A stretch of 64,000 nucleotides of DNA from an uncultured Gammaproteobacteria bacterium (GCA_964538435.1 CAZIDX010000003.1:110039-174038); one strand, 5' to 3'; shown: positions 1,991-47,752, counted from the stretch's first letter. The notes: a model not told the origin generated them from the letters alone. Made by a program: numbers and translations.

Positions 1991-5108
<3,118 letters not shown>

Positions 5109-7979: not shown

Positions 7980-8143
7980 ATATCCCCACTCCAACCCCTT
8001 GACGAAACCGTCACGCGATGTTGTGATGGAAACACAAGACAAAGAACTCCCCTTCACTGTCCGCGCCATGCTTGCGGATAGCGATTGGGAGTTCTTTTCT
8101 TTGCGCGCATTACTCTCGAGAGCTCATTAACAATTCAATAAGT

Positions 8144-10591
8144 ATGAAACTATTCGATAAAACATGGATCGCCATGCTCATGCTTTCAGCTGTGCTCGTC
8201 ATTCCCATGCGCACACAAGCATCCGCGCCGCACGTAATCATCTCCGAAATCGGTTGGGCAGGTTCTGAAGTCTCAAGTTCTGACGAGTGGATCGAGCTTA
8301 CCAACACAAGCACAACCCAGATCAACATCTCAGGCTACATGCTCACAGGAGCAGGTTCTGGCGGAGAAAGCATAGTGATCCCAGACGGTAGCCTACTCGA
8401 ACCTCACTCAACATATCTCATCGCAAACTATGATCAAACGCACGAAAACTCCACCCTTGGAGCAACACCAAACATTATCGACGCCACCCTGTCTCTCTCA
8501 AACTCAGGATTCGCTGTGCATCTCAACAACCATGACGGTGCCCAAATCGATTCTGCAGGAGATGGAACAACCCCTTTCGCTGGAGGATCTGGTGGCACTG
8601 AGGAGTCTGATGACGGACGATATCGATCCATGGTCCGAGTGGATGGATCGCTAAACGGAACACTAGAAACCTCTTGGATGAATGCGACAACCTCCACCGG
8701 ATTCAAAGAAGCATCAACAGGACTCGGCACTCCTGGTTACGCAGACGTGTGGCTCCTACTCGAAGAAATAACAGAAGAAGAACCCACAGAAGAAGCTGCG
8801 ACGGACTCATTAATCATAACTGAATTCGTCTCAAACCCACTCGAAAACGAAGTGGAATGGATCGAAGTCTTGAACGCATCCAACCAAGACGTGGATCTAA
8901 CTGGGTGGACCATCGAGGACGCCACAGAGCGACAAACACCCCTTGGAGAAGAAACCTTGCTTGCAGGAGCATTCTTCTTAATTGAGTCACCGACCGGGCA
9001 ACTTAACAACGACGGCGACTCAATCATCATCAAAGACAAAGCAGGGTCTGTAGTCGATCAGCTCGAATACGGAACGGACGAAATTCCAGCCCCAGACAAA
9101 GGCCAAGCAACCGCACTAACCTCAGATGGTTTTCAAGTTACAGACACACCAACACCTGGAGACGAAAACCTAATCGAAATCCTCGAGGCAGTTGAGGAAC
9201 CTGTCCCTGACGTCATTTCGAGCGATAGTGAAGAATCCCACGAGGAAACAGAGGCAGCACCCTCTCCAGAGGAAGAGGCAGAGAACCCTGAGCCACAAAT
9301 CGAAACCGAACCCGAGCCAGAACCAACAACCTCTGGCACCACAACCATTGTTGAAGACGAAGAATACACCGACCCAACAACACTCTTCTTTGTTGAGCTC
9401 TACCCAAACACACCCGGCTCTGATGCAGATGAGGAATACATCATCCTGAAAAACACAGGAATAGAAACGCTCGAGCTCAAAGACTGGAGCATCTCAGACG
9501 AAGCAGGGAATCACCACACATTCTCAAGTGGAGCGCTCGCAGCAAACACAGAGCTGACTCTCATGCGAACAGAAAGCGACATTACACTCAACAACAACGG
9601 AGATATTCTGTTCCTCTACTCACCCAAAGACGATCTCATTGACACAGTCATCTATGACAAGGCTGCTTCTGGTGAGAAATATGTACTCACAAATGGAGTA
9701 TGGACTTGGGAATCAGAGCAGGTGCAAACCACTGAAACAACCGAGGTAATCGAGCAGGGCAACAACACCCCAACACCGACTCCCGCTCCGCAACAGGTAG
9801 AACCAACAAAAACCACCACAACCTCATCCACAACAAACACAAGTTACTCACACGCGACTTACTCATCCGCAAACGCAACCCAAAACACAACCATCAATGA
9901 GGCAAAAACTCTCTCAGACGGATCTCATGTCACACTCAGCGGAGTCGTCACAGCAATTCCAGGAACACTTGGGAAGCAAATCTTGTACATCCAAGACGAA
10001 ACAGGGGGCATCCAAGTCTACAAGCACGACAGCCTGTTCCCAGAACTTGATATCGGAGACGTAATCTCTTTCACAGGAGAACTCTCAACAACAAGATCAG
10101 AAAGACGAGTTAAACTCGCGACTGATGCTCAAATCACAATCACCCAAACACCAAACACTGAGCCAATCGAGCTCGACGCAGACGAACTCGAAGAAACGCT
10201 CGTGGGGCAACTTGTGACAACTACCGGAACGGTGCAAACCAAAGCATCTACCCGAGTCACACTTGAGCAAGACGGAGAGGAAGCTATCATCTACCTAGGC
10301 TCAAGCGGAATCACAACAGACCTGTTCGAGCGCGGTGCAAAACTAAAAGTCACAGGTGTGCTCACAAACACCAGCGGAGAACTTCGTATCAGACCCCGAT
10401 CTGAAAACGACATCCTTATTCTGGAAAACGAAACCGAACTAATCACAACAACCGCAACAACAGGAAAAGATGCGCATACAAACAATCAATCAAAAACAGG
10501 TTGGATTCTCGTTCTCATCACAGCTGGAACTCTGGGGATCCTCGCACTGCGCAAATACTTCCCGCACGGAAGAACACATGCACCAGCATAA
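8144..10591 (+). CDS. large secreted surface protein with three lamin-tail-like domains, an acidic linker and a C-terminal TM anchor
   Basis: The signal peptide starts at MKLFDKTWIAMLMLSAVLVIPM. Three LTD-like modules are present (VIISEIGWAGSEV..EWIELTN; LIITEFVSNP..EWIEVLN; LFFVELYPNTPG..EEYIILKN). A polyacidic E/P-rich linker and a C-terminal hydrophobic helix plus basic tail follow. Confidence 0.65.
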   Translation: MKLFDKTWIAMLMLSAVLVIPMRTQASAPHVIISEIGWAGSEVSSSDEWIELTNTSTTQINISGYMLTGAGSGGESIVIPDGSLLEPHSTYLIANYDQTHENSTLGATPNIIDATLSLSNSGFAVHLNNHDGAQIDSAGDGTTPFAGGSGGTEESDDGRYRSMVRVDGSLNGTLETSWMNATTSTGFKEASTGLGTPGYADVWLLLEEITEEEPTEEAATDSLIITEFVSNPLENEVEWIEVLNASNQDVDLTGWTIEDATERQTPLGEETLLAGAFFLIESPTGQLNNDGDSIIIKDKAGSVVDQLEYGTDEIPAPDKGQATALTSDGFQVTDTPTPGDENLIEILEAVEEPVPDVISSDSEESHEETEAAPSPEEEAENPEPQIETEPEPEPTTSGTTTIVEDEEYTDPTTLFFVELYPNTPGSDADEEYIILKNTGIETLELKDWSISDEAGNHHTFSSGALAANTELTLMRTESDITLNNNGDILFLYSPKDDLIDTVIYDKAASGEKYVLTNGVWTWESEQVQTTETTEVIEQGNNTPTPTPAPQQVEPTKTTTTSSTTNTSYSHATYSSANATQNTTINEAKTLSDGSHVTLSGVVTAIPGTLGKQILYIQDETGGIQVYKHDSLFPELDIGDVISFTGELSTTRSERRVKLATDAQITITQTPNTEPIELDADELEETLVGQLVTTTGTVQTKASTRVTLEQDGEEAIIYLGSSGITTDLFERGAKLKVTGVLTNTSGELRIRPRSENDILILENETELITTTATTGKDAHTNNQSKTGWILVLITAGTLGILALRKYFPHGRTHAPA

Positions 10592-19507: not shown

Positions 19508-20932
19508 ATGATTTCAGCCCGATCTTTAGCCTCAAACTTCTCAATTCAGCTCGTTGGAAAGGCTCTCTCCGTCCTGGTGGGGCTCTTTGCGATCGCAATC
19601 ATTACACGTGTTCTTGGAACAGAAAGTTTTGGTGAGTACACCACAGCCGTCACCTACCTACAGATGTTTGGAGTGGTTGTTGACTTTGGTCTCACCCTCA
19701 CACTCGTTGTGATGATCTCAGAAAAAGGCGTGGACGAAGAACGTGTGGTCGGTAACTTCTTTGGGCTCAGGCTTGTTTCTGGTTTCCTGCTCTTTAGCCT
19801 GGCCCCACTCTCAGTCCTTGCCCTCCCCTATTCAAGCGTTGTGCAACAAGCTGTACTCATCGGAGCACTTGCATACTTCCTGATGGGTGGCGCAACCATG
19901 CTCGTTGGAATCTTCCAGCGCCACGAAAGCATGTGGCGAGCAGCATTAGCTGAGCTCATAAACCGAATCGTGCTCCTGCTCTTTGTCTGTTTTTTTGCAT
20001 GGCTAAGACCTGGAGTTGTAGAAATGATCCTGGCAGCTGTAATCGCAAACGCCATCTGGCTCTTTGCCATGATCCGCCTTGCAAAACCTTTTGTAAACGT
20101 ATCACCACGCTTTGAATGGAAATTTTGGAAAACCATCTTTTCCAGATCTTGGCCAATTGCCCTCTCAATTATCTTTAACCTGCTCTACCTTAAAGGTGAC
20201 ATTCTTTTCCTGGCCTATTTCCGTGAAAACTCAGAAGTAGGACTCTACGGAGTCGCATACAGAATCTTGGATGTGCTCACAGTACTCCCAGTCATGTTCA
20301 TGGGGCTCGTGCTCCCAAGCCTGGTGGCGGCGTGGAGCGCAAACAAGGTGAATGAATTCCGACGTCGCACAGCAAAAACATTCGACATCTTCATGCTCGC
20401 TATTATACCTATCGTTATTGGAGCCCAAGTCGTTGCATCTGAACTAACCATTCTAATCGCTGGAAAAGATTTCGTTGAAGCCGGACCTGTGCTCGCCTTA
20501 CTCACCCTCGCACTCATCGGGGTCTTTATCGGAGCACTGTACGGCCACCTCATCGTTGCCATCAACAAACAACGCGTCATGCTTTGGGGCTATCTCTTTG
20601 TAGCAATCCTCTCAGTCATCGGCTACCTCTGGCTGATTCCAGATTACGGAATGTGGGGAGCCGTCTGGGTAACACTTTTCTCTGAAGCTGTAATCTCAAT
20701 CCTGACTTTCACCGTTGTCTATCGCGTAACAGGAGCAAAACCAAATCTCACCGTCGCGCTCAAAGCACTCATCGCTGGAATCTTTATGTACGGAATTCTT
20801 CGAGCGCTCCCTCATATGCATATTGTTTTTGATATTCTCATCGGTGCAATCACTTACCTGGCAGCGACGCTCACCCTCAAAGCCATCAGCATCTCTGAAA
20901 TCAAGACTCTACTCAAAGGACAAGCTGTATGA
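19508..20932 (+). CDS. MOP-superfamily oligosaccharide flippase (Wzx-like)
   Basis: 474 aa, ~12-14 TM helices; the N-terminal ...QLVGKALSVLVGLFAIAIITRVLG is typical of polysaccharide-biosynthesis flippases. Confidence 0.75.
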   Translation: MISARSLASNFSIQLVGKALSVLVGLFAIAIITRVLGTESFGEYTTAVTYLQMFGVVVDFGLTLTLVVMISEKGVDEERVVGNFFGLRLVSGFLLFSLAPLSVLALPYSSVVQQAVLIGALAYFLMGGATMLVGIFQRHESMWRAALAELINRIVLLLFVCFFAWLRPGVVEMILAAVIANAIWLFAMIRLAKPFVNVSPRFEWKFWKTIFSRSWPIALSIIFNLLYLKGDILFLAYFRENSEVGLYGVAYRILDVLTVLPVMFMGLVLPSLVAAWSANKVNEFRRRTAKTFDIFMLAIIPIVIGAQVVASELTILIAGKDFVEAGPVLALLTLALIGVFIGALYGHLIVAINKQRVMLWGYLFVAILSVIGYLWLIPDYGMWGAVWVTLFSEAVISILTFTVVYRVTGAKPNLTVALKALIAGIFMYGILRALPHMHIVFDILIGAITYLAATLTLKAISISEIKTLLKGQAV

Positions 20933-22143
20933 TCACGCTCATCTACTTTTTACTGGCCTTTGCCTACGCAGGAATCTCTTGGATGAACTCACGCATTGGG
21001 CTAATACTCCTAGTAGCCGTTCTCCCATCCTACCTGCTGCGTTTTGAACTGTTTGGCATCCCATCCACCCTGCTCGAGCTTCTCGTACTCGGGTTTTTAC
21101 TTACATGGATCCTGAAAAACCGCTCTCAAATCAAAGAGCTCTTCAAACTTCCAGAGCTCCTGAAACTGGCAATTATCCTGTTTGTAATCGCAGGAATCAT
21201 AGGAATCGGCGTAGCCCCAGACACCCTCTCTGCTCTTGGCACATTCAAAGCCTACCTGCTTGAACCAATCCTTCTCTTCCTCATCGTGCGCCTTGAGCTT
21301 CTAAACAAACGCGTAAGCGCAAACGATCTTTTTGCTGCACTTGGTTTGTCTGCGATCATTTTGAGTCTCGTGGCATTCGCGCAAAAACTCACAGGGCTCG
21401 GCATTCCTGCCCCATGGGATATTGAGGGGAGAGTCACAAGCGTATTTGATTACCCAAACGCCCTTGGTCTCTACCTAGGTCCAATCATTGTAATCGCATT
21501 GCTCAAAATCAAAGACAGAAAAAATTGGATGCTTTGGATTCCAGCAGCTGTTTTCTCCATCCGAGCAATCACCCTCTCTCAATCTGAAGCTGCAATTGTC
21601 GCTGTAATAGCCACCATCCTTCTTGCAGGACTCGTTCACTGTCGCACACGAATCTTTGCAATCGCAATCACAGCGCTCTTGCTCGTGGCTGTGCTCCTAT
21701 CTCCTGCCCTTCAATCCAAACTCACACTACAAGACTACTCAGGTGGCGTGCGCCTATCCCAATGGGAAGAAACAACCGAAATGCTCAGAAGCAACTGGGT
21801 GTTTGGCGCGGGACTAAACGGATACCCTGAGGCTCTTGAGCCTTACCACACCGCAACTCACTACGAAATTTTCCAATACCCACATAATTTCATCTTCAAT
21901 ATCTGGACTGAACTAGGAATCCTGGGGCTTATTGCATTCGTAGTACTAACACTCGCAATCCTCAAAACCACTCATCGCTCATCGCTCATCGCTCATCGCT
22001 ACATTGCCTTTTTCGCACTCATCGAGATAACGATTCACGGTCTCGTTGATGTTCCTTATTTTAAAAACGACCTTGCGATACTGACATGGGTCCTAATCGC
22101 AATCCTCTATGCCAATGCTTGCCAGAAAACTCGTTCGAAGTAA
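20929..22143 (+). CDS. O-antigen ligase/polymerase-like (Wzy_C) membrane protein
   Basis: Polytopic protein with a large periplasmic loop (...AITLSQSEAAIVAVIATILLAGL...). It contains a 7-nt x4 tandem repeat at 21971-22000. Confidence 0.7.
   Translation: MITLIYFLLAFAYAGISWMNSRIGLILLVAVLPSYLLRFELFGIPSTLLELLVLGFLLTWILKNRSQIKELFKLPELLKLAIILFVIAGIIGIGVAPDTLSALGTFKAYLLEPILLFLIVRLELLNKRVSANDLFAALGLSAIILSLVAFAQKLTGLGIPAPWDIEGRVTSVFDYPNALGLYLGPIIVIALLKIKDRKNWMLWIPAAVFSIRAITLSQSEAAIVAVIATILLAGLVHCRTRIFAIAITALLLVAVLLSPALQSKLTLQDYSGGVRLSQWEETTEMLRSNWVFGAGLNGYPEALEPYHTATHYEIFQYPHNFIFNIWTELGILGLIAFVVLTLAILKTTHRSSLIAHRYIAFFALIEITIHGLVDVPYFKNDLAILTWVLIAILYANACQKTRSK
21971..22000 (+). repeat. tandem heptanucleotide repeat (ctcatcg)x4 inside the ligase-like CDS
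   Basis: cactcatcgctcatcgctcatcgctcatcgcta; the unit length is not a multiple of 3. Confidence 0.9.
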
Positions 22144-22765
22144 ACTCAAGACCTCAGGAGATGGTTCTGGGTGCGCAATCCCAGTCCTTGTCATCATTAT
22201 TGCCGCCACGATTATCCTAAGGCTCATCACCTGGCTTCAAGACCCTGCTCCTATTCCTCTCCTTCCAGAAGCAGAGGGAATTGTGCGACTGGAATACACC
22301 GAAGACGTCGCCTCTTACACAGATACAGATTTTCTTCTTCCAATGGAAACCTACGGAGCCGAGCTCCAAGCCATTGCAGTCTACACCGAGCCAAACGACC
22401 TCCTTCCAGTAGGAACAGTCTCTCTGGTTTATGTGCGCGACGGTTGGCGCTTTGTACAAATCGACTACAGACCAAGCACCTACCTTGAAGAATACGAACC
22501 TGGACTCAAAAAATTCCAAACTGAAGAACTTTGGATCAGTGACTACAACCCAGCTCTAATTGCAGACATCTGGGACTTCCCATCATGCCTCGAGTCAGAG
22601 GTTGAGGGATTCCCTGGAAAGTGCGAATTTACAAACCAGCTCTATTTCAACGACCACAGCATTCTTGTCTCTGTCTCAGTCGATGGAAACCACGCAACAC
22701 GGGGCGAGCTCATCGGCATCGCACAATCCATAGCAAACCACCGCATCCTACTCACCGAACCTTAA
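22109..22765 (+). CDS. hypothetical membrane-anchored protein
   Basis: 218 aa with an N-terminal TM (VLVIIIAATIILRLITWL). It overlaps the end of the ligase-like gene. Confidence 0.4.
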   Translation: MPMLARKLVRSKLKTSGDGSGCAIPVLVIIIAATIILRLITWLQDPAPIPLLPEAEGIVRLEYTEDVASYTDTDFLLPMETYGAELQAIAVYTEPNDLLPVGTVSLVYVRDGWRFVQIDYRPSTYLEEYEPGLKKFQTEELWISDYNPALIADIWDFPSCLESEVEGFPGKCEFTNQLYFNDHSILVSVSVDGNHATRGELIGIAQSIANHRILLTEP

Positions 22766-22941: not shown

Positions 22942-23823
22942 ATGCAAATACGAAAAGCCATTATTCCGGTCGCAGGAATGGGAACACGTTTCCTCCCGGC
23001 CTCAAAAGCACAGCCAAAAGAAATGCTGGCTGTAGTCGACAAACCAATCATTCAATACATCGTTGAAGAAGCTGTTGCCAGCGGCATTGAGGAGATCATC
23101 TTCGTCACTGCCATTGGAAAACGCGCCATCGAAGATCACTTCGACCGCAACTTCGAACTTGAATACCGTCTTCAGCAAAAAGGAAAAGACGAGGTCTACG
23201 CAGAGGTGGCAAAAATCGGCAAACTCGCCAAGTTCGCCTTTGTCCGCCAAAACAAACCTCTTGGTGATGGGCACGCCGTGCTCTCAGCCCTCCCCTTCAT
23301 CGAGGCACATGAACCTGTAGCTGTTCTCTTTGGAGACGACATCATTGACTCAGGGCGCAACAAACCAGCCCTCAAGCAACTCATGGACGTCTATCACAAA
23401 TATGGCGACCCCGTATCAGCGCTCATGCAAGTTCCCAAAAAAGAAGTGTACCGCTACGGAGTCATCGATGGTGTTGAGGTGTCAGACGGTGTTTGGGAGA
23501 TCAATAAGTTTGTTGAAAAACCACCAGTTGAAAAAGCTCCTTCAAACCTCGTTCACATTGGCCGCGAAATCCTCACACCAGATATCCTTCAACTTCTTCC
23601 GCAAGTACAAGCTGGAAATGGTGGTGAGATACGACTTGCCGACGCATTCGCCGAGTATATCAAACAAAAACGGGCGCTCTACGGCTGTGTATTCAAAGGC
23701 ACACGCTACGACTGCGGAGACAAACTTGGTTTCCTAAAAGCTCAAATCGAGCTCGGTCTCAAGCACCCTGAGATCGGAAAAAGTCTCAAACGCTACCTCA
23801 AAAAGACAACAAAGAATCTATGA
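22942..23823 (+). CDS. galU: UTP--glucose-1-phosphate uridylyltransferase
   Basis: MQIRKAIIPVAGMGTRFLPASKAQPKEMLAVVDKPIIQYIVEEA... is the canonical GalU N-terminus. The ORF-track upstream extension was rejected. Confidence 0.9.
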   Translation: MQIRKAIIPVAGMGTRFLPASKAQPKEMLAVVDKPIIQYIVEEAVASGIEEIIFVTAIGKRAIEDHFDRNFELEYRLQQKGKDEVYAEVAKIGKLAKFAFVRQNKPLGDGHAVLSALPFIEAHEPVAVLFGDDIIDSGRNKPALKQLMDVYHKYGDPVSALMQVPKKEVYRYGVIDGVEVSDGVWEINKFVEKPPVEKAPSNLVHIGREILTPDILQLLPQVQAGNGGEIRLADAFAEYIKQKRALYGCVFKGTRYDCGDKLGFLKAQIELGLKHPEIGKSLKRYLKKTTKNL

Positions 23824-25193
23824 ACCTCAGGTCATTTCGATTAATTCTTCTCGTGCTTGTATTCGCACTCGTCACATCAGGTTGCGGAGGACCCTCAGCA
23901 GCCGAGCGCGCAGCAAACACATCTGTCACACTCTCAGTGTGGCGCGTGTTTGATGACGACGAAACATTTGACACCCTGATGAGGTCTTACCAATCAATTC
24001 ACCCAAACGTTTCGTTTGAATACCGAGAAATGCGTTTTGATGAATACGAAGACGAACTCATCCGGGCCTTTGCAGAAGGAACAGGACCGGATATTTTTTC
24101 TGTTCACAACACCTGGCTTGGAGGCTACGAGAGTCTTATCTCACCAATGCCAGATTCTGTAAGCATCCCTTACTGCGAAACACGAGGGAGCATCAAAAAA
24201 GAAACGGTCTGCACCATCCAGGAAGAACCAACAATTTCTCAACGAACACTCAAAAACGATTTTGTTGACGTGGTTGCAGAAGACGTTATTCGCTCATACA
24301 AAGCAACAAGCAAATCCGAGGCTGAGGACCGTATCTTTGGTCTTCCAATGGGAGTTGATACACTTGCCCTCTTCTACAACAGAGATCTCCTCAACGCCGC
24401 CGGCCTCCCTGAACCTGCCTACGACTGGACACAGTTCCAGGAGCACGTAACAGCACTCACAACCCTTGGATCCGACGAGGAAATCAAACAATCAGGAGCA
24501 GCTATTGGAACAAGCCAAAACGTTGAGCGTGCCTTTGACATCATCTCCGTACTCATGATGCAAAACGGAACAACAATGACAGATTCTCGTGGACGCGCAA
24601 CCTTTGGAAACGATGTAGATGGAGAATACTTCGCAGGACAAGCCACACGCTTCTACACAGACTTTGCCAACCCACTCAAACAGGTCTACACCTGGAACGA
24701 AGACATGGAAGATTCTTTTGATGCATTCACAAGTGGAGCAACAGCCTACTTCTTTGGCTATTCCTACCACCATGACCTCATCATGACAGCAAATGAAAAG
24801 ATGAACCTCGGCATTGCACCTCTTCCTCAAATCGATGGTGGGAAAACCGTTAACTACGCAAACTACTGGGTCGAAACCGTTGCCAAATCAACAGATCACG
24901 AAGACTGGGCCTGGGACTTTATCGAATTCGCTGCCTCAGCTGACCGAGTCGATAGCTACCTAAGCACTGCCAAAAAACCAACCGCTCTGCGAGCACTTAT
25001 CAACGATCAAGTCGACGACGAAGTACTCTCAGTATTTGCCGGACAAACACTCACAGCCGAAAGTTGGTACAAAGGAGATGAGGTTGCTGTTGTAGAAGAA
25101 GCGCTTCTTGACCTCATTAACGCCTTCCTTGCAGGCGAAGAACAAGAACGCGCTCTCAAAGATGCACAAAACAAAGTGAACCAAACTCTATGA
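23820..25193 (+). CDS. ABC-transporter extracellular solute-binding lipoprotein (family 1, sugar-type)
   Basis: Lipobox LVTSGCGG, and SBP-1-like sequence throughout. Confidence 0.7.
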   Translation: MNLRSFRLILLVLVFALVTSGCGGPSAAERAANTSVTLSVWRVFDDDETFDTLMRSYQSIHPNVSFEYREMRFDEYEDELIRAFAEGTGPDIFSVHNTWLGGYESLISPMPDSVSIPYCETRGSIKKETVCTIQEEPTISQRTLKNDFVDVVAEDVIRSYKATSKSEAEDRIFGLPMGVDTLALFYNRDLLNAAGLPEPAYDWTQFQEHVTALTTLGSDEEIKQSGAAIGTSQNVERAFDIISVLMMQNGTTMTDSRGRATFGNDVDGEYFAGQATRFYTDFANPLKQVYTWNEDMEDSFDAFTSGATAYFFGYSYHHDLIMTANEKMNLGIAPLPQIDGGKTVNYANYWVETVAKSTDHEDWAWDFIEFAASADRVDSYLSTAKKPTALRALINDQVDDEVLSVFAGQTLTAESWYKGDEVAVVEEALLDLINAFLAGEEQERALKDAQNKVNQTL

Positions 25194-25936
25194 TCCGTCG
25201 GATCCTCCTCTCAACTCTCCTATTCCTACTTCTACTTGCACCACAGGTCGGCTTAGCCTATGACAGCGGCATCTGCAGCGCAGATCCATGCGAAGCACAT
25301 GAAGTCGGACCACTCATGCAAGACATTTCCAAAGAGTGTGGAAACTCAGGAACATGCTCTCTAGCTGACATCATGACCGTCTTTGCAAACGCAGGTAACT
25401 ACATCTTGGGAATCATTGGTGGAATCGTCCTGCTCATGTATGTCATTGGAGGAATCTACATGCTCACATCAGGAGGAAAACCAGATCGCGTAACAAAAGG
25501 AAAAAAATACCTTACCGTCTCCACCATGGGACTCCTCATTGTCCTGTTTGCCTTCCTGGGAATCCATTCTCTGCAAAGCGCCATTGTCTCAGGAACATTC
25601 TTTACCCCTTATCCAGACGGAGACGGCTACTATGTATGCACAGATGAATCTGTGGGGCGCCCATGTGGTTTAAACCAAACCTGCCAGAGCGACCTCTCGT
25701 GTAAAGACAAGTGCACGTTGCAATACGGAGGCGGAACAGAAGACGTAGACACCGGATCTTACAAGATCTTCTCGGGATTTGCGTGTGTTGATCGCGACAA
25801 CACACTTGATCAAAACGAAGCAGACGCAGAAACAAGCTGGAATGGCTGGTATGACAGCACAACATGCATGTCAAACTTATGCCCTGGCGACACTGCTGTT
25901 CAATGCTGTAAAAAGTATATTGTTGTCCCTTACTAG
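25190..25936 (+). CDS. pilin-like exported two-TM protein (paralog 1 of 5) with an extra Cys-rich C-terminal domain
   Basis: Signal peptide, then the conserved hairpin ILGIIGGIVLLMYVIGGIYMLTSGGKPDRVTKGKKYLTVSTMGLLIVLFAFLG. About 110 aa carrying 12+ Cys follow (CTDESVGRPCGLNQTCQSDLSCKDKC...CCKK). Confidence 0.55.
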   Translation: MIRRILLSTLLFLLLLAPQVGLAYDSGICSADPCEAHEVGPLMQDISKECGNSGTCSLADIMTVFANAGNYILGIIGGIVLLMYVIGGIYMLTSGGKPDRVTKGKKYLTVSTMGLLIVLFAFLGIHSLQSAIVSGTFFTPYPDGDGYYVCTDESVGRPCGLNQTCQSDLSCKDKCTLQYGGGTEDVDTGSYKIFSGFACVDRDNTLDQNEADAETSWNGWYDSTTCMSNLCPGDTAVQCCKKYIVVPY

Positions 25937-25944
25937 AAAAAAAT

Positions 25945-26277
25945 ATGAAAAAAGCAATTATTGTTTCAGTAATACTGATCCACCTCCCAAACATCGCTCT
26001 TGCAACACAGCTAGAAGACCCTCTCTCAACAGGAGGGGATCTCAATGTCGTGATCGCACGCCTCATCCAGGCCCTGCTCGGAATCGTCGGAGGTCTAGCA
26101 CTCCTCATGTTTATCTGGGGTGGTTTTCTCTGGCTCACTTCAATGGGATCACCAGACAAAATCAAAAAAGGGAAAGACACGCTCATCTGGGCCACAATCG
26201 GAATCGCCATAATCCTCATGGCTTACACACTTGTCAAAACCGTTATCATGGCCCTTGAATCCGGAACAGTTTACTAG
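25945..26277 (+). CDS. pilin-like exported two-TM protein (paralog 2)
   Basis: Signal peptide (..IALATQ), then LLGIVGGLALLMFIWGGFLWLTSMGSPDKIKKGKDTLIWATIGIAIILMAYTLV. Confidence 0.55.
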   Translation: MKKAIIVSVILIHLPNIALATQLEDPLSTGGDLNVVIARLIQALLGIVGGLALLMFIWGGFLWLTSMGSPDKIKKGKDTLIWATIGIAIILMAYTLVKTVIMALESGTVY

Positions 26278-26410
26278 ACCTGTGTGGATATCTTTTTCCC
26301 GCCAATCCAAAAAACCGGTAAAATATAACAAAACTTCTTAACTTATTTCTAATTGTTTAATTTCCTTTGTTCCTGAGGCTAACTCAGGAATATGAAAGGG
26401 GGTGACGTCT

Positions 26411-26851
26411 ATGTACACATTATCTAAACGACACGTCGGCTACCTTCTAGGTGCCGCAATCGCACTCTCTATCGGTGCACTTTTGTTCATCGGTATTGAT
26501 AGCGCGCATGCTCAAGCCCTTGGAGCTGACGACCTTTTTGGTGGTTATGATGGAGACAGCTTTGCAGGAGAAGCTGGACTTGGTGACGCAGATCTAGTAG
26601 ACACCATTGCACAGATCATCCGAATCGCACTTGGATTCCTCGGAATCATCGCTGTGGTAATCATCTTGCTTGGTGGATTCAAGTGGATGACAGCTGGCGG
26701 AAACGACGACAAGGTCAAAGATGCAAAGAAGCTTATCTTCTCTGGAATCATCGGTCTCGTTATCGTGCTTACTGCATACGCAATCGCAAGCTTCGTGATC
26801 GACTCAATCATGACAGCAACCGCAGGTGGCGGAGGTGGAGACGCAGGTTAA
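26411..26851 (+). CDS. pilin-like exported two-TM protein (paralog 3), Gly/Asp-rich N-terminal region and poly-Gly tail
   Basis: ATG 9 nt after RBS gaaaggggg. ...IALGFLGIIAVVIILLGGFKWMTAGGNDDKVKDAKKLIFSGIIGLVIVLTAYAIA. Confidence 0.55.
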   Translation: MYTLSKRHVGYLLGAAIALSIGALLFIGIDSAHAQALGADDLFGGYDGDSFAGEAGLGDADLVDTIAQIIRIALGFLGIIAVVIILLGGFKWMTAGGNDDKVKDAKKLIFSGIIGLVIVLTAYAIASFVIDSIMTATAGGGGGDAG

Positions 26852-26940
26852 TTTCAGCAACATCCCCTATCCATCTTGGATGGGGGCTTGCCTTGCTCCC
26901 GAGAGTCTTCTCTAGAGAGCAAGGTTAGCTAGCAAACCCT

Positions 26941-27357
26941 ATGACAAAAACCAAAAAGATTGCTCTTGTTATTGTGGCTGCAATGGCCCTAGCAGGACTC
27001 ATGCTCGCTCTCACACCAGCCCCTGTATCAGCTGACGTGGCTGCAACACTATCAGAAGGACTTGGAAAAGCCGCAGGAGATAATTACGACACAGGAGGTA
27101 CACTCCCTGGATTTGCAGGAAATATTATTAGCGCGCTATTAGCCGCAACTGGAATGATTTTCCTTGTCATTACTGTGTACGCCGGTGTTATGTACATGAC
27201 AGCAGCCGGAGACGAAGCAAAGGTAAAAAAAGGGAAAGCCATGCTGGTGCAATCCATGATAGGCCTGATCATTATCATTGGCGCCTACGCCTTCACCAAG
27301 TTCGTTATTGATGAAATCGGTGCTGCAGCAGACGCCGGAACACCAACACAAGAATAA
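26941..27357 (+). CDS. pilin-like exported two-TM protein (paralog 4)
   Basis: Signal peptide ..PVSADVA, then ISALLAATGMIFLVITVYAGVMYMTAAGDEAKVKKGKAMLVQSMIGLIIIIGAYAF. Confidence 0.55.
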   Translation: MTKTKKIALVIVAAMALAGLMLALTPAPVSADVAATLSEGLGKAAGDNYDTGGTLPGFAGNIISALLAATGMIFLVITVYAGVMYMTAAGDEAKVKKGKAMLVQSMIGLIIIIGAYAFTKFVIDEIGAAADAGTPTQE

Positions 27358-27392
27358 TTTCAAATAAACCAATTAGCCGTTAACACACACCT

Positions 27393-27776
27393 ATGAAAAA
27401 GCTCTTCCACAAATATGGTGCTTGGCTCTCAACCCTCCCTGTGCTGCTTCTTCCAGTAGCAGCAAACGCACAATTGTCAGAGGCTGGCGAACACCTCGAC
27501 ACTGTAGCAACAGGAATCGGAGCTGATGCCCAAAATGATCTTCCAACACTTATCGGAAACATCATTGCTGTGCTTCTCTCAGTTCTTGGAATCATCTTCG
27601 TTGTACTTGTTGTATACGCAGGTTTCCTCTATCTCACCTCACAAGGTGAAGAAGACAAGGTTAAGAAAGCAAAGAAGCTTCTCAGCCAGGCTGTCATCGG
27701 ACTCGTGCTCATCATCGCAGCTTACGCAATCGCAGACTTCGTGATTGCCTCACTCGTAGACGTAGCAAGCACCTAG
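27393..27776 (+). CDS. pilin-like exported two-TM protein (paralog 5)
   Basis: Signal peptide ..VAANAQ, then IIAVLLSVLGIIFVVLVVYAGFLYLTSQGEEDKVKKAKKLLSQAVIGLVLIIAAYAIA. Confidence 0.55.
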   Translation: MKKLFHKYGAWLSTLPVLLLPVAANAQLSEAGEHLDTVATGIGADAQNDLPTLIGNIIAVLLSVLGIIFVVLVVYAGFLYLTSQGEEDKVKKAKKLLSQAVIGLVLIIAAYAIADFVIASLVDVAST

Positions 27777-27802
27777 CCGCAGATCAAATCCACAAACAAC
27801 AA

Positions 27803-27827
27803 GACCCGGAGCAATCCGGGTTTTTTG
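27803..27827 (+). terminator. rho-independent terminator acccggagcaatccgggtttttt ending the pilin-like array
   Basis: 7-bp GC stem plus T6. The sequence downstream switches abruptly to >60% GC. Confidence 0.75.
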
Positions 27828-27950
27828 TTAGCAAAATACAACCGCCCCCGAGAACCTGAATCTGTTTCCAGACCAGGCCCTGCGGGGGCGTCGTTGTTTG
27901 CCATGGCGTTCCCATGGCTAGGACCACTGCTTGAGCAGCCCTCGTGGATC

Positions 27951-28868
27951 TCAGTCCCACACGCGAGCACCTTCGGTGCCATCGTAGTCCCAGGACCCAC
28001 CTCGGTCGTTGCCGCCGTAGTGAGCGCGGCCCTTTCCGTTACGCGGGTGCTTGACCCACACCTGATGGTGCACGAGCAGGCCCGAGTAGGGATCCAGCAC
28101 CTCTTCGTACTCACCCTCCAGCGGCACCAGATACCAGACCGTGATGTCATCACTGGACTTCCAGTTCATCCAGAGGCTCTGGACAACCCGCGGGTTCACA
28201 CCCTTGTAGGCGATCGGGTCGGTGTGACCATCGCCATCCAGGTCCGCGTACACCGGAACGAAACCCGAGGGCTGACCTGGCTCGGCCGAAACCGGCATGG
28301 GGTTACCCTTGTTGATGACCACCACGCGAACCTCGGAGTAACCCTCAGCCCACGTCTTGGCACCAGAGCTCAGGCGCTGAAGATGCAACCGACCCGAGCC
28401 AGGAAGCTCGCTGACGCTCACCCGGCTGGGCGTGGACACCCGACGATGCGAGGTGCCACCGTACACGACCCGCCGTGGGCCCTGCGTGCCGCGCTGCTGC
28501 GCAACCGGCCCCGGCATCGGCTGTGCCGGCACAGGCACCTGCTCGGTGCTCGCCGTACTCTGCATGGCTGCCAGGTCGCCCTGGATCTCTCGGATCTGGG
28601 CGTTGAGCTCGTCCACCTGGGACGAAAGACTCTCTGCCAGCGACGAATCCTCTTCGGACCGCGCTTCCATGACCGAGATCTTCGCAACCAGGATGCACTG
28701 CTGCACGCGCAGCGTCTGCACCTCGAGCAGGTCACTGTAGTTGGTGCCGAGGCACTCGGCGCGCTTGTCAGCGTACCAGTCGTCGAGCTCGTCGGCGCTG
28801 GCGCTCAGGGGGACGATCAGAAGAAGGGTGACCAGGATGGCCAGAAGGATGGTTTCGATGGTCTTCAT
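27951..28868 (-). CDS. secreted hypothetical protein with a coiled-coil and a DxDGDG (FG-GAP/Ca-binding-like) motif; high-GC island
   Basis: GGAGGA RBS and signal peptide MKTIETILLAILVTLLLIVPLSASA. ...VYADLDGDGHTDPIAYKG... The opposite-strand ORF 27825..28949 is rejected as antisense. Confidence 0.5.
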   Translation of the reverse strand: MKTIETILLAILVTLLLIVPLSASADELDDWYADKRAECLGTNYSDLLEVQTLRVQQCILVAKISVMEARSEEDSSLAESLSSQVDELNAQIREIQGDLAAMQSTASTEQVPVPAQPMPGPVAQQRGTQGPRRVVYGGTSHRRVSTPSRVSVSELPGSGRLHLQRLSSGAKTWAEGYSEVRVVVINKGNPMPVSAEPGQPSGFVPVYADLDGDGHTDPIAYKGVNPRVVQSLWMNWKSSDDITVWYLVPLEGEYEEVLDPYSGLLVHHQVWVKHPRNGKGRAHYGGNDRGGSWDYDGTEGARVWD

Positions 28869-28949
28869 GGATTCCTCCGGGCCGCCTCAGGCGACCACGC
28901 AAGTAGATGTGTGCGTGGTCAACCCGAGACTATCCCAAGCCGACCGTGA

Positions 28950-29510
28950 TCAGGGGTTGGCGATCTTGCCGATCGCCTCGGTCTGCCAGTCGTTGCGCGC
29001 ACGCTCTTCCCGCACGCACGCAGCGATCTCGCTGAGTGTGACCGGATTCTCCGGGCACGTGGCGCTGGGGTCGATGGCCTCGCTTGCAGATGCCGGACTC
29101 ACGGTGTAGCCCTGCTGCCCCAGAACGGGCAGGTCTGGACCGGCTTGCACGGGGATCGCGCCACCAGGACCTGGGCCCACGGTGATCACGTCCGGAGCGA
29201 CCTGGCCGTAGCCGTAGTAGCCACCACCGTAACCGCCGTACATGCCGTAGCCGGTGTAGCCGGCCGACAGGCTGGTGCCATGCTCGCTGGTCTGCATGGA
29301 GATGGGCATGCCCTGCTCCACCGCGACGCGGGCCGTCTCGGCGTTGTAGCCGGTCGTGTCCGCGTTCATGACCGCGACAGCTCCACCTGCCGGTCCGTTG
29401 TAGTCCACCCGCATCACATCCCCATCCGGGGACTGACGCAGACTCGTCACATGCGCTGCACATCCCTGCATCAGCAGGGCCAGCACAATCAAGCTCAGGA
29501 TGCGATTCAT
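28950..29510 (-). CDS. probable lipoprotein with a Gly/Tyr-rich low-complexity segment; high-GC island
   Basis: AAGGAGG RBS before MNRILSLIVLALLMQGCAAH. ...GYTGYGMYGGYGGGYYGYG... Confidence 0.45.
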   Translation of the reverse strand: MNRILSLIVLALLMQGCAAHVTSLRQSPDGDVMRVDYNGPAGGAVAVMNADTTGYNAETARVAVEQGMPISMQTSEHGTSLSAGYTGYGMYGGYGGGYYGYGQVAPDVITVGPGPGGAIPVQAGPDLPVLGQQGYTVSPASASEAIDPSATCPENPVTLSEIAACVREERARNDWQTEAIGKIANP

Positions 29511-30093
29511 CGCTTCCTCCTTCATACCAACTCACCCTGCTGGGCTGTCGGCTCTGTGTGATTGTGATTCTCTGAGTAGCAGTTAGCGAAACTCAAGTGA
29601 TCTACTCGCTCTTCGCTAACCGCTACTCGCTTCTTAAAGGTACAAAAAAGGCAGCGATGTCGAGGGGGGTTCCGCCTATCAACAGATATGCGGTACATCG
29701 ATGCCTTATTTGACCCCTCAAATATCATATTTTCTAACGAACAACTATACCACAAAATGGCCATTTTGTCAATACATTTAAACACTCTCAAACACTCTCA
29801 AAGTCCAGCTTCCGAAGTCCAGCTTTGGAAGCTGGACTTCGAATTTGAGTTTATAAAATGAAAAACAATAAAATTTGAAAATGTGTTATCTGCAGACAAA
29901 ATATTTCAATCTGTTTCATTCTTTTGATAGTAATTCAAAACAATCGAAAGACCGGTGCCAGCCTCACACTTCCCGAAGGTTGTGAAGGCCGGACACCGGT
30001 CCGTTTCGTACTCAGGTCTTTCGCGCCTGAGCGTAGAGCTCTACGAACGTAACACGAGGGTCACTCAAGCTCGCGGAGGGGATCAAACCCTCA

Positions 30094-32280
30094 TCACTTG
30101 CACAAGATCGCGCGATCGCGCGCTGGCATGCTAGGGTCCGAGCACAGATCCCGACCCTTGGGCTTGGGTGCCGGGGCCGAAGCCTGCACCACCGTACCCT
30201 TGCGCTTCTCGAAGGTGTCCCCACTCGCGTAGGTGATCTCCTTCTCACGCATGCGGCTACCCGTAGTCGGGTCCACGGTCGTGATGTCCGTAACCGACAC
30301 CTTGGGATCCACGATGTCTGTGAGAACCAGCTTCTCGGCCGGATCTGCAAACCAGACGTAACCCATCATGGCCACGAGGATCAGGCCGATGCACGCACCA
30401 GCCCACCGCACCTTGCTGCGCACGTTGTAGAAGCGCGCACCGATCTTGACAGGCCGAACGCTCAGGCGGTGAACCAGAAGCGCGAACACTAGGCCCATGA
30501 CCGCAACTGCCACCGTGGACAACCACTTGGAAGCGACCACCATCTTGGCGATGAAGGCCCAGGCCATCCCCACGAGGGTCAGACCGGTCACGAACTCGCC
30601 CGTGTGAGCACTGAGCGTACCGCACAGGTACACCATAACGATCGGCACCACACCAATCGCGTACTCGATGTACACAATGCTATTGGCGTACTTCTGGCGC
30701 GCCCTGTGGTTGTAGCCGATATCCACCAGGCCCATGGCCGTGGCGATCGGGGTGAGCACACCCACCACCAGGAGCAGTCGCCAGATCACGTCGATACCCA
30801 GCAGAGCTGAGACAACGGACATACCACCGAAGACGATGGCAAAGGCGCTGATCTTGCGACCGAGCGACTTCATCCAGTCGACCTCGCCCTTGAGGCCCGG
30901 GATGGCATCCAGTAGCTTCTGCCAGATCGGCAGGACCCAGGTGAGGGCCCAGATCATGACATAGCCCTTGATCATCGTGTAGGCAGCGTACTTGACACCA
31001 GACACCGTCTCACCGCCGAGCTGAGCCACAGCATCAGGCTGAGTGCTGAACCCATCGATGAACATCAGGATGAACTGGAGGAACCCGAACAGGTACAGCG
31101 CCGCAGCAGCCACGAACGGCGAAGCCACCAGGATGGTGACCAGGAACATGGCAACCGGGTTGAACCCCCGATTTCGGGCAGCCTCGATGATGGACGAGGC
31201 CAGCAGAAGGATCTTGTTGCTAGCCTGCAGTTCAGCCTTGAGCCACTTGTCCAGCACGCTCTTGGCATCCAGGTAGTCCTCACGCTCGAAGGTCGGCCGG
31301 TTCTGATCCCGGTCGATCACGAGCGGCGCGAACGGCCCGCCGAACAGGCGGTTGATGTCGTCCGGGCTGACCTTGTCAGGCAGATCCTTGGACAGATCCT
31401 CGGCCACGATATCCTCGAGGCCACCGAACCGACGGCTAGCGCGCGAGTAGGCCTGAATGCACAGGACCGAATCGTCACTGAGCCGCTGGGCCCAGGAGCG
31501 CTTGGGGCCGAACAGGCGACGAACTTCTTCGATGTCGCCAGGAGTGGCACCACCGGCCTGCATGATCTCCACGACCCGCTCGGGCGGAACGTTTTCATAC
31601 GGGAACGGCTGACCAGGAACGATCACGGTCTGACGATTCCGGGCATTGCCACGCGTCTCACGACGGGCCGCATTGGCAGCGACCCACATGTCATGGGCAT
31701 TGGCCCACTCGTTGGTCGAGCCGCTGGCATCCCGACACATGGGGACGTTGTCGTCGTAGCGGCGGATCTCTCCGTTGTCGTCGAGCAGTGCGATGAACAC
31801 ACGCCCGGGAACGAGCCGCGTGCGAAACACGCGATCCATGACGCCAGTACGGTCTGCCTGCGCCACGGTGGGGCTGTTCTGGACATTATCCACCCAACCG
31901 CGGAGGATGTCGGAGAACGAGTCACCAACACCAACCGTTGCGGCCGGCAGCATCTGGAACATGGTGCGCGCGGTCTGCGCGAACACGCTGTTGTCGTCGG
32001 GGAGGATGTGCTGCGAGAGATTGCGCGAGGCAATCCAACGCCCAAGCCCAGCAGCCAGGATGTGCGGACCGTAGGTGGCACCTGGAATGGCGCCGACGAT
32101 TCGACGAGCGGCACGCTCGAAGTTCCGGTTGCCAGTCAGGTTCTCCAGAGCACTACGAACGGCCGCACGCGGATCTTCTCCACGCGACTGCGCGTTTGCC
32201 AGAGCTCGGTTGATGGTCTCACGGAACAACCGTTCCGTTACCTCATTTGCGAGGCCAGTTGCGATGGTTCCTGCACTCAT
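30094..32280 (-). CDS. large hypothetical membrane protein (cytoplasmic N-domain ~400 aa plus ~10 TM helices); high-GC island
   Basis: Start chosen at MSAGTIATGL, 7 nt after an AGGAGA RBS; the ORF track extends it to 32418. No recognisable catalytic motif. Confidence 0.45.
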   Translation of the reverse strand: MSAGTIATGLANEVTERLFRETINRALANAQSRGEDPRAAVRSALENLTGNRNFERAARRIVGAIPGATYGPHILAAGLGRWIASRNLSQHILPDDNSVFAQTARTMFQMLPAATVGVGDSFSDILRGWVDNVQNSPTVAQADRTGVMDRVFRTRLVPGRVFIALLDDNGEIRRYDDNVPMCRDASGSTNEWANAHDMWVAANAARRETRGNARNRQTVIVPGQPFPYENVPPERVVEIMQAGGATPGDIEEVRRLFGPKRSWAQRLSDDSVLCIQAYSRASRRFGGLEDIVAEDLSKDLPDKVSPDDINRLFGGPFAPLVIDRDQNRPTFEREDYLDAKSVLDKWLKAELQASNKILLLASSIIEAARNRGFNPVAMFLVTILVASPFVAAAALYLFGFLQFILMFIDGFSTQPDAVAQLGGETVSGVKYAAYTMIKGYVMIWALTWVLPIWQKLLDAIPGLKGEVDWMKSLGRKISAFAIVFGGMSVVSALLGIDVIWRLLLVVGVLTPIATAMGLVDIGYNHRARQKYANSIVYIEYAIGVVPIVMVYLCGTLSAHTGEFVTGLTLVGMAWAFIAKMVVASKWLSTVAVAVMGLVFALLVHRLSVRPVKIGARFYNVRSKVRWAGACIGLILVAMMGYVWFADPAEKLVLTDIVDPKVSVTDITTVDPTTGSRMREKEITYASGDTFEKRKGTVVQASAPAPKPKGRDLCSDPSMPARDRAILCK

Positions 32281-32487
32281 GGCGATCTCCTGTGTGCGCG
32301 GGCAATGCCCTGCGTCTTGTAGGTTTTGATGAACTGAAAACGACATCCAAACAGCCTCGAGGTTGCCCCCAAAGCCGCTCAGAATCGGAAAACCTTCTCT
32401 TTGTGGACGCAAAGTCACACACAGAAGAAGGTAGGTTTATACCATATTTTGGGCTTTTTGTCAATCTGTCTTGACGTATCAAAATCA

Positions 32488-45879: not shown

Positions 45880-46015
45880 CACGCACCGAGTCCTTAAACT
45901 CGGCCTGCCCGCCGAAGCTTTAGCAAAGGCGGGTTTTCGTATTGATCTATTGACAAAACAAGGAAAATCCGTAAAGTCCAAACCACTGCATCAAACGCAG
46001 ATATGGGAGGAAACC

Positions 46016-46912
46016 ATGTTCGAAGCCTTGCTGCTCGTCATCCCCGCCTGGGGACTGCTACTCACAGGAATCATCTTCCTCGCACTCTTCTTCTTCATCG
46101 AGTTCGAGCGCCCTGGTTGGGCCACCATCTCGGTCATCCTCACGATCGCCGTGCTCCAGATCGGTAACATCTGGGACTCGGGTGTGAACGTCATCGGACT
46201 CCTGATCGAGCACCCCTTCTACGCACTCCTGGCCTTCTGCGCCTGGTTTGTGATCGGAGGGTTCTGGTCCGTGGGCAAGTGGTGGTTCTTTGTGCGTCGC
46301 CTGCGCGACAAGTACGAAGAGAAGAAGCGTCGGTTCCTACTCTCGCACGGAATCAAGGACACCCTCACCATCCCGGACGAGCTCAAGGAGCGCTTCCTCT
46401 ACGAGAACTACCTCCACGAGTACGACCGTGCCATCAACACGCTACTCAGAGCGTTCCCGGACTACAGCAACGCCGCCTCACGAGTCAACGACCGTGTCGG
46501 TGGCGGAACCGACCTGACAGCCACCGCAACGCATTTCGGAGTCAACGAAGAAGCTCTGCGCGACCTGGCCACGTTCACCAACGCTCGCCCAGACGATCGC
46601 AAGGACCTGCTGTCCCTGAACCTACCCGATGAAATGAAGGCTAAGTTCAGCGCTGAGCTGAGCGGCCCGGAGATGCGCGCAGCCATCGTCCCCTCTGCTC
46701 GGGACCACAAGTGGCGCATCATGACATGGATGGCCTGGTGGCCCTGGTCCATGCTCTGGACCCTGCTCAACGACCCCATCCGCCGCATCTGGCGCTGGGT
46801 CTGGAAGAACCTGCAAAAGACGTTTGCGAGCATCGCCACAAGCGCGTTCCGCAGCGTCGACGACGACCTGGTCAGCACCCACGAGACTCCTACCAAGGAC
46901 CTCGAGGCCTGA
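46016..46912 (+). CDS. hypothetical membrane protein (3-4 N-terminal TM helices plus a cytoplasmic domain); high-GC island
   Basis: GGGAGG RBS then MFEALLLVIPAWGLLLTGIIF...; the track start 45950 is rejected. Confidence 0.45.
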   Translation: MFEALLLVIPAWGLLLTGIIFLALFFFIEFERPGWATISVILTIAVLQIGNIWDSGVNVIGLLIEHPFYALLAFCAWFVIGGFWSVGKWWFFVRRLRDKYEEKKRRFLLSHGIKDTLTIPDELKERFLYENYLHEYDRAINTLLRAFPDYSNAASRVNDRVGGGTDLTATATHFGVNEEALRDLATFTNARPDDRKDLLSLNLPDEMKAKFSAELSGPEMRAAIVPSARDHKWRIMTWMAWWPWSMLWTLLNDPIRRIWRWVWKNLQKTFASIATSAFRSVDDDLVSTHETPTKDLEA

Positions 46913-47109
46913 CCCACGCACGATCCCACTCGCACACCCCGCGACCGAGGGCTCGCCCGCCACAGCTCACTAGAGCAAAGGCGGGTTTTCTAATTGACAC
47001 AAAAACCTAAAAATGATAGTTTTTTCAGTCCAGATTCGCCTGAACCCAGCTGGTTCTGTTAGTCGAAATAAGATGATATCTGTTTTCTTTTTCTGACCAG
47101 GAGGGTCAG

Positions 47110-47751: not shown

Positions 47752-47752
47752 C

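Follow-up and report, generated by a model that had tools for sequence, protein, structure and literature searches.

An array of five tandem pilin genes was analysed in a 64,000-nucleotide stretch of DNA (GCA_964538435.1, CAZIDX010000003.1:110039-174038), which is referred to as the window and whose first letter is position 1. The five open reading frames (ORFs) are co-oriented on the + strand between positions 25190 and 27776 and encode proteins of 248, 110, 149/146, 138 and 127 amino acids. As the best explanation of the whole we consider it likely that they are five VirB2/TrbC-type pilins of Candidatus Uhrbacteria whose array is chromosomal and inherited vertically, and that a VirB4-powered machine encoded elsewhere in the genome assembles them. 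An earlier note on this DNA had described five exported paralogs at this place, and their ORFs, their AxA-like sites and their loop were all confirmed. Logan contig SRR8146440_5620, an independent assembly of the same DNA, has gene calls of 248, 110, 146, 138 and 127 amino acids, and the precomputed Pfam results on these calls are concordant with membership in PF18895.

Family and architecture of the five proteins

The five genes and their scores against PF18895 (T4SS_pilin, where T4SS stands for type IV secretion system) are as follows.

Pilin 1: 25190..25936, + strand; 248 amino acids; signal peptide, Cys-containing N-terminal ectodomain, hairpin helices 58-93 and 98-134, and a C-terminal domain of 115 amino acids; 30.2 bits
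Pilin 2: 25945..26277, + strand; 110 amino acids; 51.2 bits, and 31.5 bits against TrbC (PF04956)
Pilin 3: 26411..26851, + strand; 146 amino acids from the ATG (149 from the GTG at 26402); 38.2 bits
Pilin 4: 26941..27357, + strand; 138 amino acids; 26.5 bits; its closest paralog is pilin 5
Pilin 5: 27393..27776, + strand; 127 amino acids; 42.6 bits

The gathering cut-off of PF18895 is 26.6 bits. Four of the five proteins are past it and pilin 4 falls 0.1 bit short, and pilin 4 was recovered by our own profile of the family with an E-value of 7e-35. The TrbC/VirB2 profile PF04956 (gathering cut-off 27.9 bits) accepted pilin 2, scored pilin 5 below the cut-off at 21.6 bits and reported no match to the other three. 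Every other Pfam family stayed well under its own threshold, and these two were the only ones whose curated cut-offs were exceeded. For four of the five proteins, the NCBIfam search ranked NF045849, named 'Mbov_0395 family pilin-like conjugal transfer protein', first, with 26.9-39.2 bits where the cut-off is 40. A profile built from homologs picked exactly the five array ORFs in the window with E-values from 1e-35 to 1e-70, which puts their paralogy far beyond chance. Our own pilin profile collected 91,115 cluster representatives at E-values up to 0.001, and the loop motif and the Gly positions are common to about 91,000 representatives of the family. On these sequence scores all five proteins are members of the VirB2/TrbC-type pilin family (Pfam T4SS_pilin), the identity that the earlier note had proposed.

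Each pilin begins with a basic, hydrophobic N-terminus that closes with an AxA-like site (GLA/YD, ALA/TQ, AHA/QA, VSA/DV and ANA/QL for pilins 1 to 5, the slash marking the predicted cleavage) and has two more hydrophobic 19-mers, with Kyte-Doolittle peaks of 2.1-3.2. Alignment of the five paralogs bore out the shared Lys-rich loop between the helices, with the consensus T(S/A)xGxx(D/E)(K/R)(V/I)(K/T)K(G/A)K. The VirB2-type topology, consisting of a cleavable signal peptide, two hydrophobic helices and a short positively charged loop, is predicted for all five, and so is the cleavage. The mature length is about 90-111 amino acids, in place of the value of about 70 first suggested. AlphaFold modelled proteins 1 and 2 (alignments of 28 and 40 sequences) with a long helical hairpin at a pLDDT of about 90; pilin 1 had a pLDDT of 81.5 overall and about 88-93 in its C-terminal domain, and pilin 2, a hairpin, had 82. 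This fold is consistent with a VirB2-like pilin, yet it is too simple for a diagnosis. A sequence search of the PDB with the pilin profile returned only sub-significant matches to an ABC permease and no related solved structure, and structure searches gave nothing more specific than generic helical hairpins. A type IV pilin of the PilA kind was rejected as a candidate: the proteins have no G-F-x-x-x-E motif and carry Sec-type AxA signals and two downstream helices instead.

The helices are the best-conserved parts of the pilins. The least conserved are the C-terminal tails and the C-terminal domain of pilin 1, its Cys residues excepted. The short variable N-terminus and short tail that had been ascribed to every member do not describe pilin 1, in which four Cys, conserved among 28 homologs, precede helix 1 and a C-terminal domain of 115 amino acids follows the hairpin. 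This domain is Cys-rich (about 10 Cys), beta-rich and confidently modelled, and no structural match to it was found. Some of the pilin 1 homologs are truncated to about 172-182 amino acids.

Orthologs of pilin 5 with 53-80% identity occur in about 27 metagenome-assembled genomes (MAGs), the majority of them titled Candidatus Uhrbacteria. Weaker relatives (29-50% identity) were found in MAGs titled Paceibacterota, Spechtbacteria, Gracilibacteria and Peribacteria. By these sequence relationships the host of the array is Candidatus Uhrbacteria, an ultra-small member of the Patescibacteria or candidate phyla radiation (CPR), in GTDB class ABY1, where a survey of the Patescibacteria also places the Uhrbacteria (PMC12102498). 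Five of the contigs with related loci (L004, L009, L012, L018 and L027 in our numbering) are titled 'uncultured Gammaproteobacteria bacterium', yet they have pilin arrays and flanking genes typical of Uhrbacteria loci, and the Gammaproteobacteria labels on these third-party assemblies look wrong.

Positional orthology and expression signals of the array

Complete five-gene arrays were found in 23 Uhrbacteria loci, or 24 counting the window. The size pattern of about 240, 111, 150, 140 and 128 amino acids is kept over the 24 arrays. Pilins 1, 2, 3 and 5 have their best match at their own array position in 23 of the 23 other arrays; pilin 4 does so in 12 of the 23 and otherwise matches best at position 5, its nearest paralog. 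Over the profile columns, identity is 0.48-0.66 between orthologs and 0.22-0.44 between paralogs, with pilin 3 jointly the most conserved member (ortholog identity 0.66); within the array, the paralogs are 25-35% identical to protein 1. Since the gene order and the position-specific orthologs are kept in 24 arrays, the divergence of the five paralogs is ancient. The array is probably vertically inherited, and it is chromosomal, because the window also holds 23S and 5S rRNA genes, dnaA and dnaN (49.7-52.5 kb) and the cell-wall genes for PBP1, Ddl, GlmS, a D,D-carboxypeptidase and SpoIID. Four tRNA genes lie in the same window, and the distance from the pilin array to dnaA is about 23 kb.

The following expression signals and RNA elements were located within the array.

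26282-26292 and 26319-26324, + strand: conserved elements of the spacer between pilins 2 and 3, namely the 11-mer GTGTGGATATC and the -10-like box TAAAAT
26864..26929, + strand: double RNA hairpin between pilins 3 and 4; -38.7 kcal/mol, z -4.4
27795..27829, + strand: intrinsic terminator; stem-loop of -19 kcal/mol, z -4.7, followed by the U-run UUUUUUGUU

The spacer before gene 3 is AT-rich and 100-200 nucleotides long. The 11-mer stands just past the stop codon of pilin 2, occurs once in the 64-kb window and is present in 14 other array loci, and a TA(A/G)AAT box is conserved about 85 nucleotides ahead of the ATG of pilin 3. Together they make a putative internal promoter or operator of pilin 3. 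The likely start of gene 3 is the ATG at 26411, which has the right spacing after GGGGGTGA, with the GTG at 26402 as the alternative. A strong Shine-Dalgarno sequence of the AAGGAGGTGA type precedes gene 3 in 15 of 24 arrays; each of the other four genes has one in 0-3 of 24.

The 80 nucleotides past the stop codon of pilin 3 fold with -24.5 to -44.7 kcal/mol (mean -36.9) in all 24 arrays, compared with means of -8 to -12 kcal/mol after pilins 1, 2 and 4. Alignment of this spacer resolved two adjacent hairpins with compensatory changes in 17 of 20 pairs. Pairing was kept in 92% of the paired cells of the alignment, against 31-45% when the partners were slid, and the observed covariation was reached by none of 500 shuffles. 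The motif has no Rfam match. It lies once in each locus, in this spacer (in L002-L028 as in the window), and nowhere else in the 766 kb of related sequence. Past pilin 5, a comparably stable structure is present in 24 of 24 arrays (mean -24.8 kcal/mol); in the window it is the strong terminator that the earlier note had placed at the end of the array. Gene 3 probably encodes the abundant major subunit, because it has its own promoter-like box, a strong Shine-Dalgarno sequence and covarying hairpins at its 3' side. The double hairpin could stabilise the mRNA of gene 3 or attenuate read-through into genes 4 and 5.

Upstream partner genes and the proposed assembly machine

Two genes on the same strand lead into the array.

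22942..23823 (longest ORF from 22621), + strand: galU-type UTP-glucose-1-phosphate uridylyltransferase; Pfam NTP_transferase; first gene of the conserved module
23820..25193, + strand: sugar-type solute-binding protein (SBP) homolog; lipoprotein-like signal …LVTSG/C; Pfam SBP_bac_1, 8.7e-21

The GalU protein scores 331 bits against the NCBIfam profile TIGR01099 (cut-off 326.8), and its Logan gene call has 293 amino acids. The SBP is distantly similar to GanS/MalE. Its stop codon overlaps the start of pilin 1 by 4 nucleotides (ATGA) in the window, and such an overlap is found in 14 of 23 arrays. A SBP_bac_1 homolog of 440-500 amino acids lies on the same strand immediately 5' of the pilins in every array with upstream sequence, and galU precedes the SBP gene in most Uhrbacteria loci. 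The order galU, SBP and seven pilins was seen in L031 and L048, SBP followed by pilins also in L027 and L030, and GyrA, SBP and four pilins in L036, which belongs to Paceibacterota. The linkage between SBP and pilins, as read from these gene orders, spans at least two CPR classes (ABY1 and Paceibacterota). No ABC permease or ATPase genes were found near the SBP gene in the window. The linkage is not mentioned in the survey of the Patescibacteria (PMC12102498) or in the papers returned by a full-text literature search. Judging from the gene order, the SBP lipoprotein is probably co-transcribed with the array, and a joint function with the filament at the cell surface is probable.

Further upstream, positions 19508-22765 of the window encode a Wzx-type flippase, a protein like Wzy_C/O-antigen ligases and a protein of 218 amino acids with no assigned function; many Uhrbacteria loci keep this group in synteny. 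Some Wzy_C enzymes are O-glycosyltransferases of pilins. The Wzy_C protein of the window has only weak matches to O-glycosylation ligases, and glycosylation of the pilins by the Wzx and Wzy_C genes is a speculation.

The family, the architecture, the order galU-SBP-pilins 1 to 5-terminator, the positional orthology, the covarying hairpin and the ribosome binding site of gene 3 are results of the analysis, and the steps of export and assembly were modelled by analogy with conjugative pili. By this analogy the pre-pilins would be exported by Sec and their signal peptides cleaved, after which each pilin would form a membrane hairpin whose basic, Lys-rich loop is cytoplasmic and whose two ends lie outside. 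A VirB4-powered machine resembling a T4SS, encoded elsewhere in the genome, would then extract the pilins and polymerise them into a surface filament or conduit. Cultivated Saccharibacteria cannot grow on their host bacterium without apparatus of this type. The sequence signals suggest that gene 3 supplies the abundant major subunit and genes 2, 4 and 5 minor subunits. Gene 1, whose disulfide-rich ectodomains would be on the exposed face, may encode an adhesin or a tip subunit of a specialised kind; disulfide bonding and such a role fit the hairpin topology, in which both Cys-rich segments would face outward. The SBP lipoprotein would act together with the filament at the cell surface.

Several observations weigh against an array that is served by a distant VirB4-powered machine. 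No VirB4, VirB3, VirB6, VirB8, VirD4 or relaxase gene is present in the 64-kb window, where no T4SS Pfam family was matched even at E-values up to 5 for unannotated ORFs, and the Walker A ORFs of at least 300 amino acids are RuvB and DnaA, two chance matches aside. The absence of T4SS genes from the window that had been noted before is in this way upheld, and the word 'orphan' holds for the window and for all 46 related loci examined: within about 10 kb of their pilins, no VirB4-like gene was seen in any of them. The sole T4SS-like neighbour is a T4CP-like (type IV coupling protein-like) gene in L050, 2.5 kb from a lone pilin. The mature array pilins are 20-40 amino acids longer than classical VirB2 or TraA. 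The fold searches were unspecific, with no E-value of 0.001 or lower and no conjugative pilin among the top matches listed, and the roles given to the paralogs and to the SBP are drawn from sequence signals. No T4SS pilus of the Patescibacteria has yet been seen directly (PMC12857230). Among the five array-bearing Uhrbacteria MAGs that could be mapped by name to Table S1 of the survey, VirB4 is found in only one (PMC12102498). It is listed as absent from GW2011_GWF2_39_13, RIFOXYA2_FULL_40_9, RIFOXYB12_FULL_58_10 and CG10_big_fil_rev_8_21_14_0_10_48_16 and as present in CG_4_9_14_3_um_filter_50_9, the closest mapped relative (pilin 5 76% identical), and the rate in Patescibacteria overall is about 80% (PMC12102498).

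These absences are weak evidence, because VirB4 was called in 18 and not called in 18 of 36 closely related Rifle Uhrbacteria draft MAGs, and the calls differed even where two bins matched in GC content and site. Incompleteness of the bins, or regions that vary between strains, would be enough to explain this. Unlinked pilins are common, since only 1,135 of 1,948 assemblies have a pilin gene close to virB4 (PMC12102498). In the orthologous array of Uhrbacteria GW2011_GWF2_39_13, two genes were called VirB2 by the MPF-T virB2 profile (PMC12102498).

The same observations led us to weigh a module that has no T4SS ATPase at all, in which the VirB2-like hairpins and the SBP are sufficient for a complex at the surface or in the membrane, such as a hetero-oligomeric stalk or pore that Sec inserts and that presents or serves the SBP for the capture of host-derived glycans. 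It would account for an SBP gene that sits immediately upstream, often with overlapping start and stop codons, in every array with upstream sequence and in both ABY1 and Paceibacterota, that has no ABC permease or ATPase genes beside it in the window, and for a virB4 that is never near the array in 46 loci and was not detected in four of five array-bearing MAGs. The patchy detection of VirB4 even among near-identical populations, where bins may be incomplete, its presence in the closest mapped relative and the frequency of unlinked pilins in genomes that have virB4 all speak against it. Moreover, we know of no VirB2-family protein that functions without a T4SS. We consider such a module unlikely. 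A fuller version is slightly more doubtful still: galU, SBP and the five pilins would be a T4SS-ATPase-independent apparatus of Uhrbacteria and some Paceibacterota, with a heteromeric VirB2-like filament or membrane stalk around subunit 3, the Cys-rich subunit 1 at its tip, the grasping or harvest of host surface glycans with the SBP, and a stoichiometry set by the RNA between genes 3 and 4.

The earlier note had also suggested antigenically or functionally varied surface structures, and a repertoire for antigenic or host-range variation has been raised in the literature for Patescibacterial arrays (PMC12102498). In such a repertoire the paralogs would be interchangeable major subunits, diversifying fast or swapped by recombination. 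The low identity of the paralogs (25-35%) and the lower conservation of the exposed N-terminal and C-terminal segments relative to the helices would agree with it, and a small hint of exchange is that pilins 4 and 5 are alike at 0.48 within genomes against 0.44 between them. However, 24 arrays have these five genes in one order, each position with its own orthologs, which speaks for ancient divergence, and strong expression signals on gene 3 only and a unique domain on gene 1 indicate that the members are not interchangeable. No long DNA repeats, inverted repeats or invertible segments able to drive conversion or inversion were found in or around the array, the best repeat being 105 nucleotides at 72% identity, and variation based on recombination was rejected for want of suitable repeats. 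By the positional 1:1 orthology, functionally distinct subunits fit better than a cassette system for antigenic variation, which we regard as improbable. The functional half of the suggestion is retained and the antigenic half is not.

That the five are unrelated small membrane proteins (holins, bacteriocins with their immunity proteins or generic two-helix proteins) whose Pfam match reflects hydrophobic composition is very improbable: short hydrophobic proteins do draw weak matches, 14 sub-threshold membrane families being listed for protein 5, and the structure searches were unspecific, but only PF18895 and TrbC passed curated cut-offs, about 91,000 representatives of the family have the same loop motif and Gly positions, cleavable signal peptides are predicted, and the context is housekeeping, with no phage, lysis or ABC-exporter genes. 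Holins and class II bacteriocins were rejected individually, as the Pfam and NCBIfam searches gave no such family above or near threshold and the neighbours are housekeeping and envelope genes.

Chromosomal surroundings and known systems

Other features of the window were recorded beside the array. In the region 1678-5105, the 23S rRNA gene measures 3,115 nucleotides against a model of 2,925 positions, which suggests insertions, and is linked to the 5S gene; a 16S gene was not found anywhere in the 64-kb window. In the region 49659-53724, dnaN and dnaA are succeeded by a 1.2-kb stretch, 52487-53724, that is free of ORFs of at least 120 amino acids; the GC skew flattens beyond it, and by these signals it is the probable replication origin. 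Positions 8072-10591 encode a protein of 839 amino acids with three lamin-tail domains and an OB-fold nucleic-acid-binding domain. Islands of 58-67% GC in this genome of about 47% GC lie at 27950-32420, 46000-48000 and 56000-64000, and a high-GC island is found at the matching place in another Uhrbacteria species (L007, 10400-14100). The first island has three conserved minus-strand genes encoding 305, 191 and 774 amino acids, for which no Pfam, NCBIfam, PADLOC or PDB relatives were found, and PADLOC found nothing on the high-GC islands. The polytopic protein of 774 amino acids, downstream of the array, was tried as a divergent VirB6 and rejected: it has no Pfam or NCBIfam match and two homologs only by word search, and a profile of 10 orthologs found no PDB relative. 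Its gene is convergent with the array and lacking in the more distant SBP-pilin loci, and it is not part of the pilin system.

Pilin domains also occur in larger proteins of related loci. One is fused to a Big_5 Ig-like domain in a protein of 657 amino acids (L032, 9770-11743) and another lies in an ORF of 2,885 amino acids (L042, 2666-11323). Many database proteins have 2-16 pilin stretches per chain (P0068 and P0076, for example); either genuine fusions or translation of whole arrays under the wrong genetic code could account for them. To judge from the fusions to larger extracellular modules in related loci, decorated pilins are a recurring theme. Three loci (L040, L043 and L045) have almost no ORFs of at least 90 amino acids in table 11 and a normal coding density with TGA as sense; they probably use genetic code 25, though L043 and L045 are titled Peribacteria. 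By eye, the large ORFs beside the single pilins in L043 resemble a polytopic membrane protein and surface proteins rather than components of a T4SS.

Tandem VirB2-like arrays have already been catalogued in Patescibacteria. A survey of 3,035 genomes, with PF18895 and PF04956 among its profiles, counted 441 arrays of 2-11 genes in 383 assemblies, tandem or one gene apart, with a mean pairwise identity of 25% and a maximum of 54%; its total includes the array of pilins that Southlakia epibionticum has within its T4SS cluster (PMC12102498). Transposon sequencing (Tn-seq) in S. epibionticum ML1 showed that epibiotic growth depends on its T4SS and pilin genes alike, both being essential (PMC10633639). 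A review lists six sequence-divergent VirB2-like pilins in Southlakia and raises a T4SS pilus in a monoderm as a possibility (PMC12857230). With five tandem genes of 25-35% identity in Uhrbacteria, the array studied here is, by sequence, a Patescibacterial VirB2 array and a further example of the type. It shares with the others, among them those of S. epibionticum ML1 and TM7x (the 'Sec-secreted array' of the latter), the Pfam family, tandem pilins that diverge in sequence but are alike in structure, a monoderm CPR host, a chromosomal position within about 25 kb of dnaA and the lack of a relaxase. It differs in not being in or beside a virB4 cluster and in belonging to ABY1, whereas such arrays are reported to be most abundant in Microgenomatia and Saccharimonadia. 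The literature searched has no mention of the galU-SBP-pilin order, the Cys-rich first member, the gene 3 signals or the covarying intercistronic hairpins.

More distant systems share single traits. The VirB2, TrbC and TraA pilins of Gram-negative T4SS have a signal peptide, two hydrophobic helices and a short basic loop as well, and protein 2 passes the TrbC threshold; the Uhrbacteria array differs in its monoderm host, in five paralogs rather than one, in having no adjacent virB operon and in longer mature pilins with an N-terminal extension of 25-40 amino acids. The NF045849 proteins of Mycoplasma integrative conjugative elements are VirB2-like hairpins in a wall-less or monoderm lineage, but the Uhrbacteria proteins all score below 40 bits and their context is not an integrative conjugative element. 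Bartonella and Anaplasma have several tandem divergent VirB2 genes too. Theirs sit in T4SS that translocate effectors in intracellular diderm pathogens, and antigenic variation has been proposed for them, in contrast to the stable orthologous sets and unequal expression signals of the Uhrbacteria array. In operons of the pap/fim type, the gene for the major subunit lies near the promoter and is strongly translated, and a stable RNA structure stands between it and the minor subunit genes; the regulatory logic is alike, whereas the pilus family and the assembly pathway are unrelated.

To the catalogue of such arrays this analysis contributes four features: the five subunits form a fixed set, the array is tied to an SBP lipoprotein gene, its first subunit is rich in Cys, and the RNA between two of its genes covaries. 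Much of bacterial diversity belongs to the Patescibacteria, which spend their lives attached to other microbes. In the one genetically tractable species a T4SS-like system and its pilin array are essential; this locus leaves that picture as it is and supplies handles for work on it. The five-subunit set gives candidates for the major and the specialised subunits, the partnership with the SBP lipoprotein suggests a role at the cell surface, in contact with a host or with nutrients, and the covarying RNA predicts unequal expression of the subunits. The Uhrbacteria lineage could be used to ask whether VirB2-like pilins work without VirB4, and if closed genomes of the clade do lack VirB4, the finding would be considerably more important.

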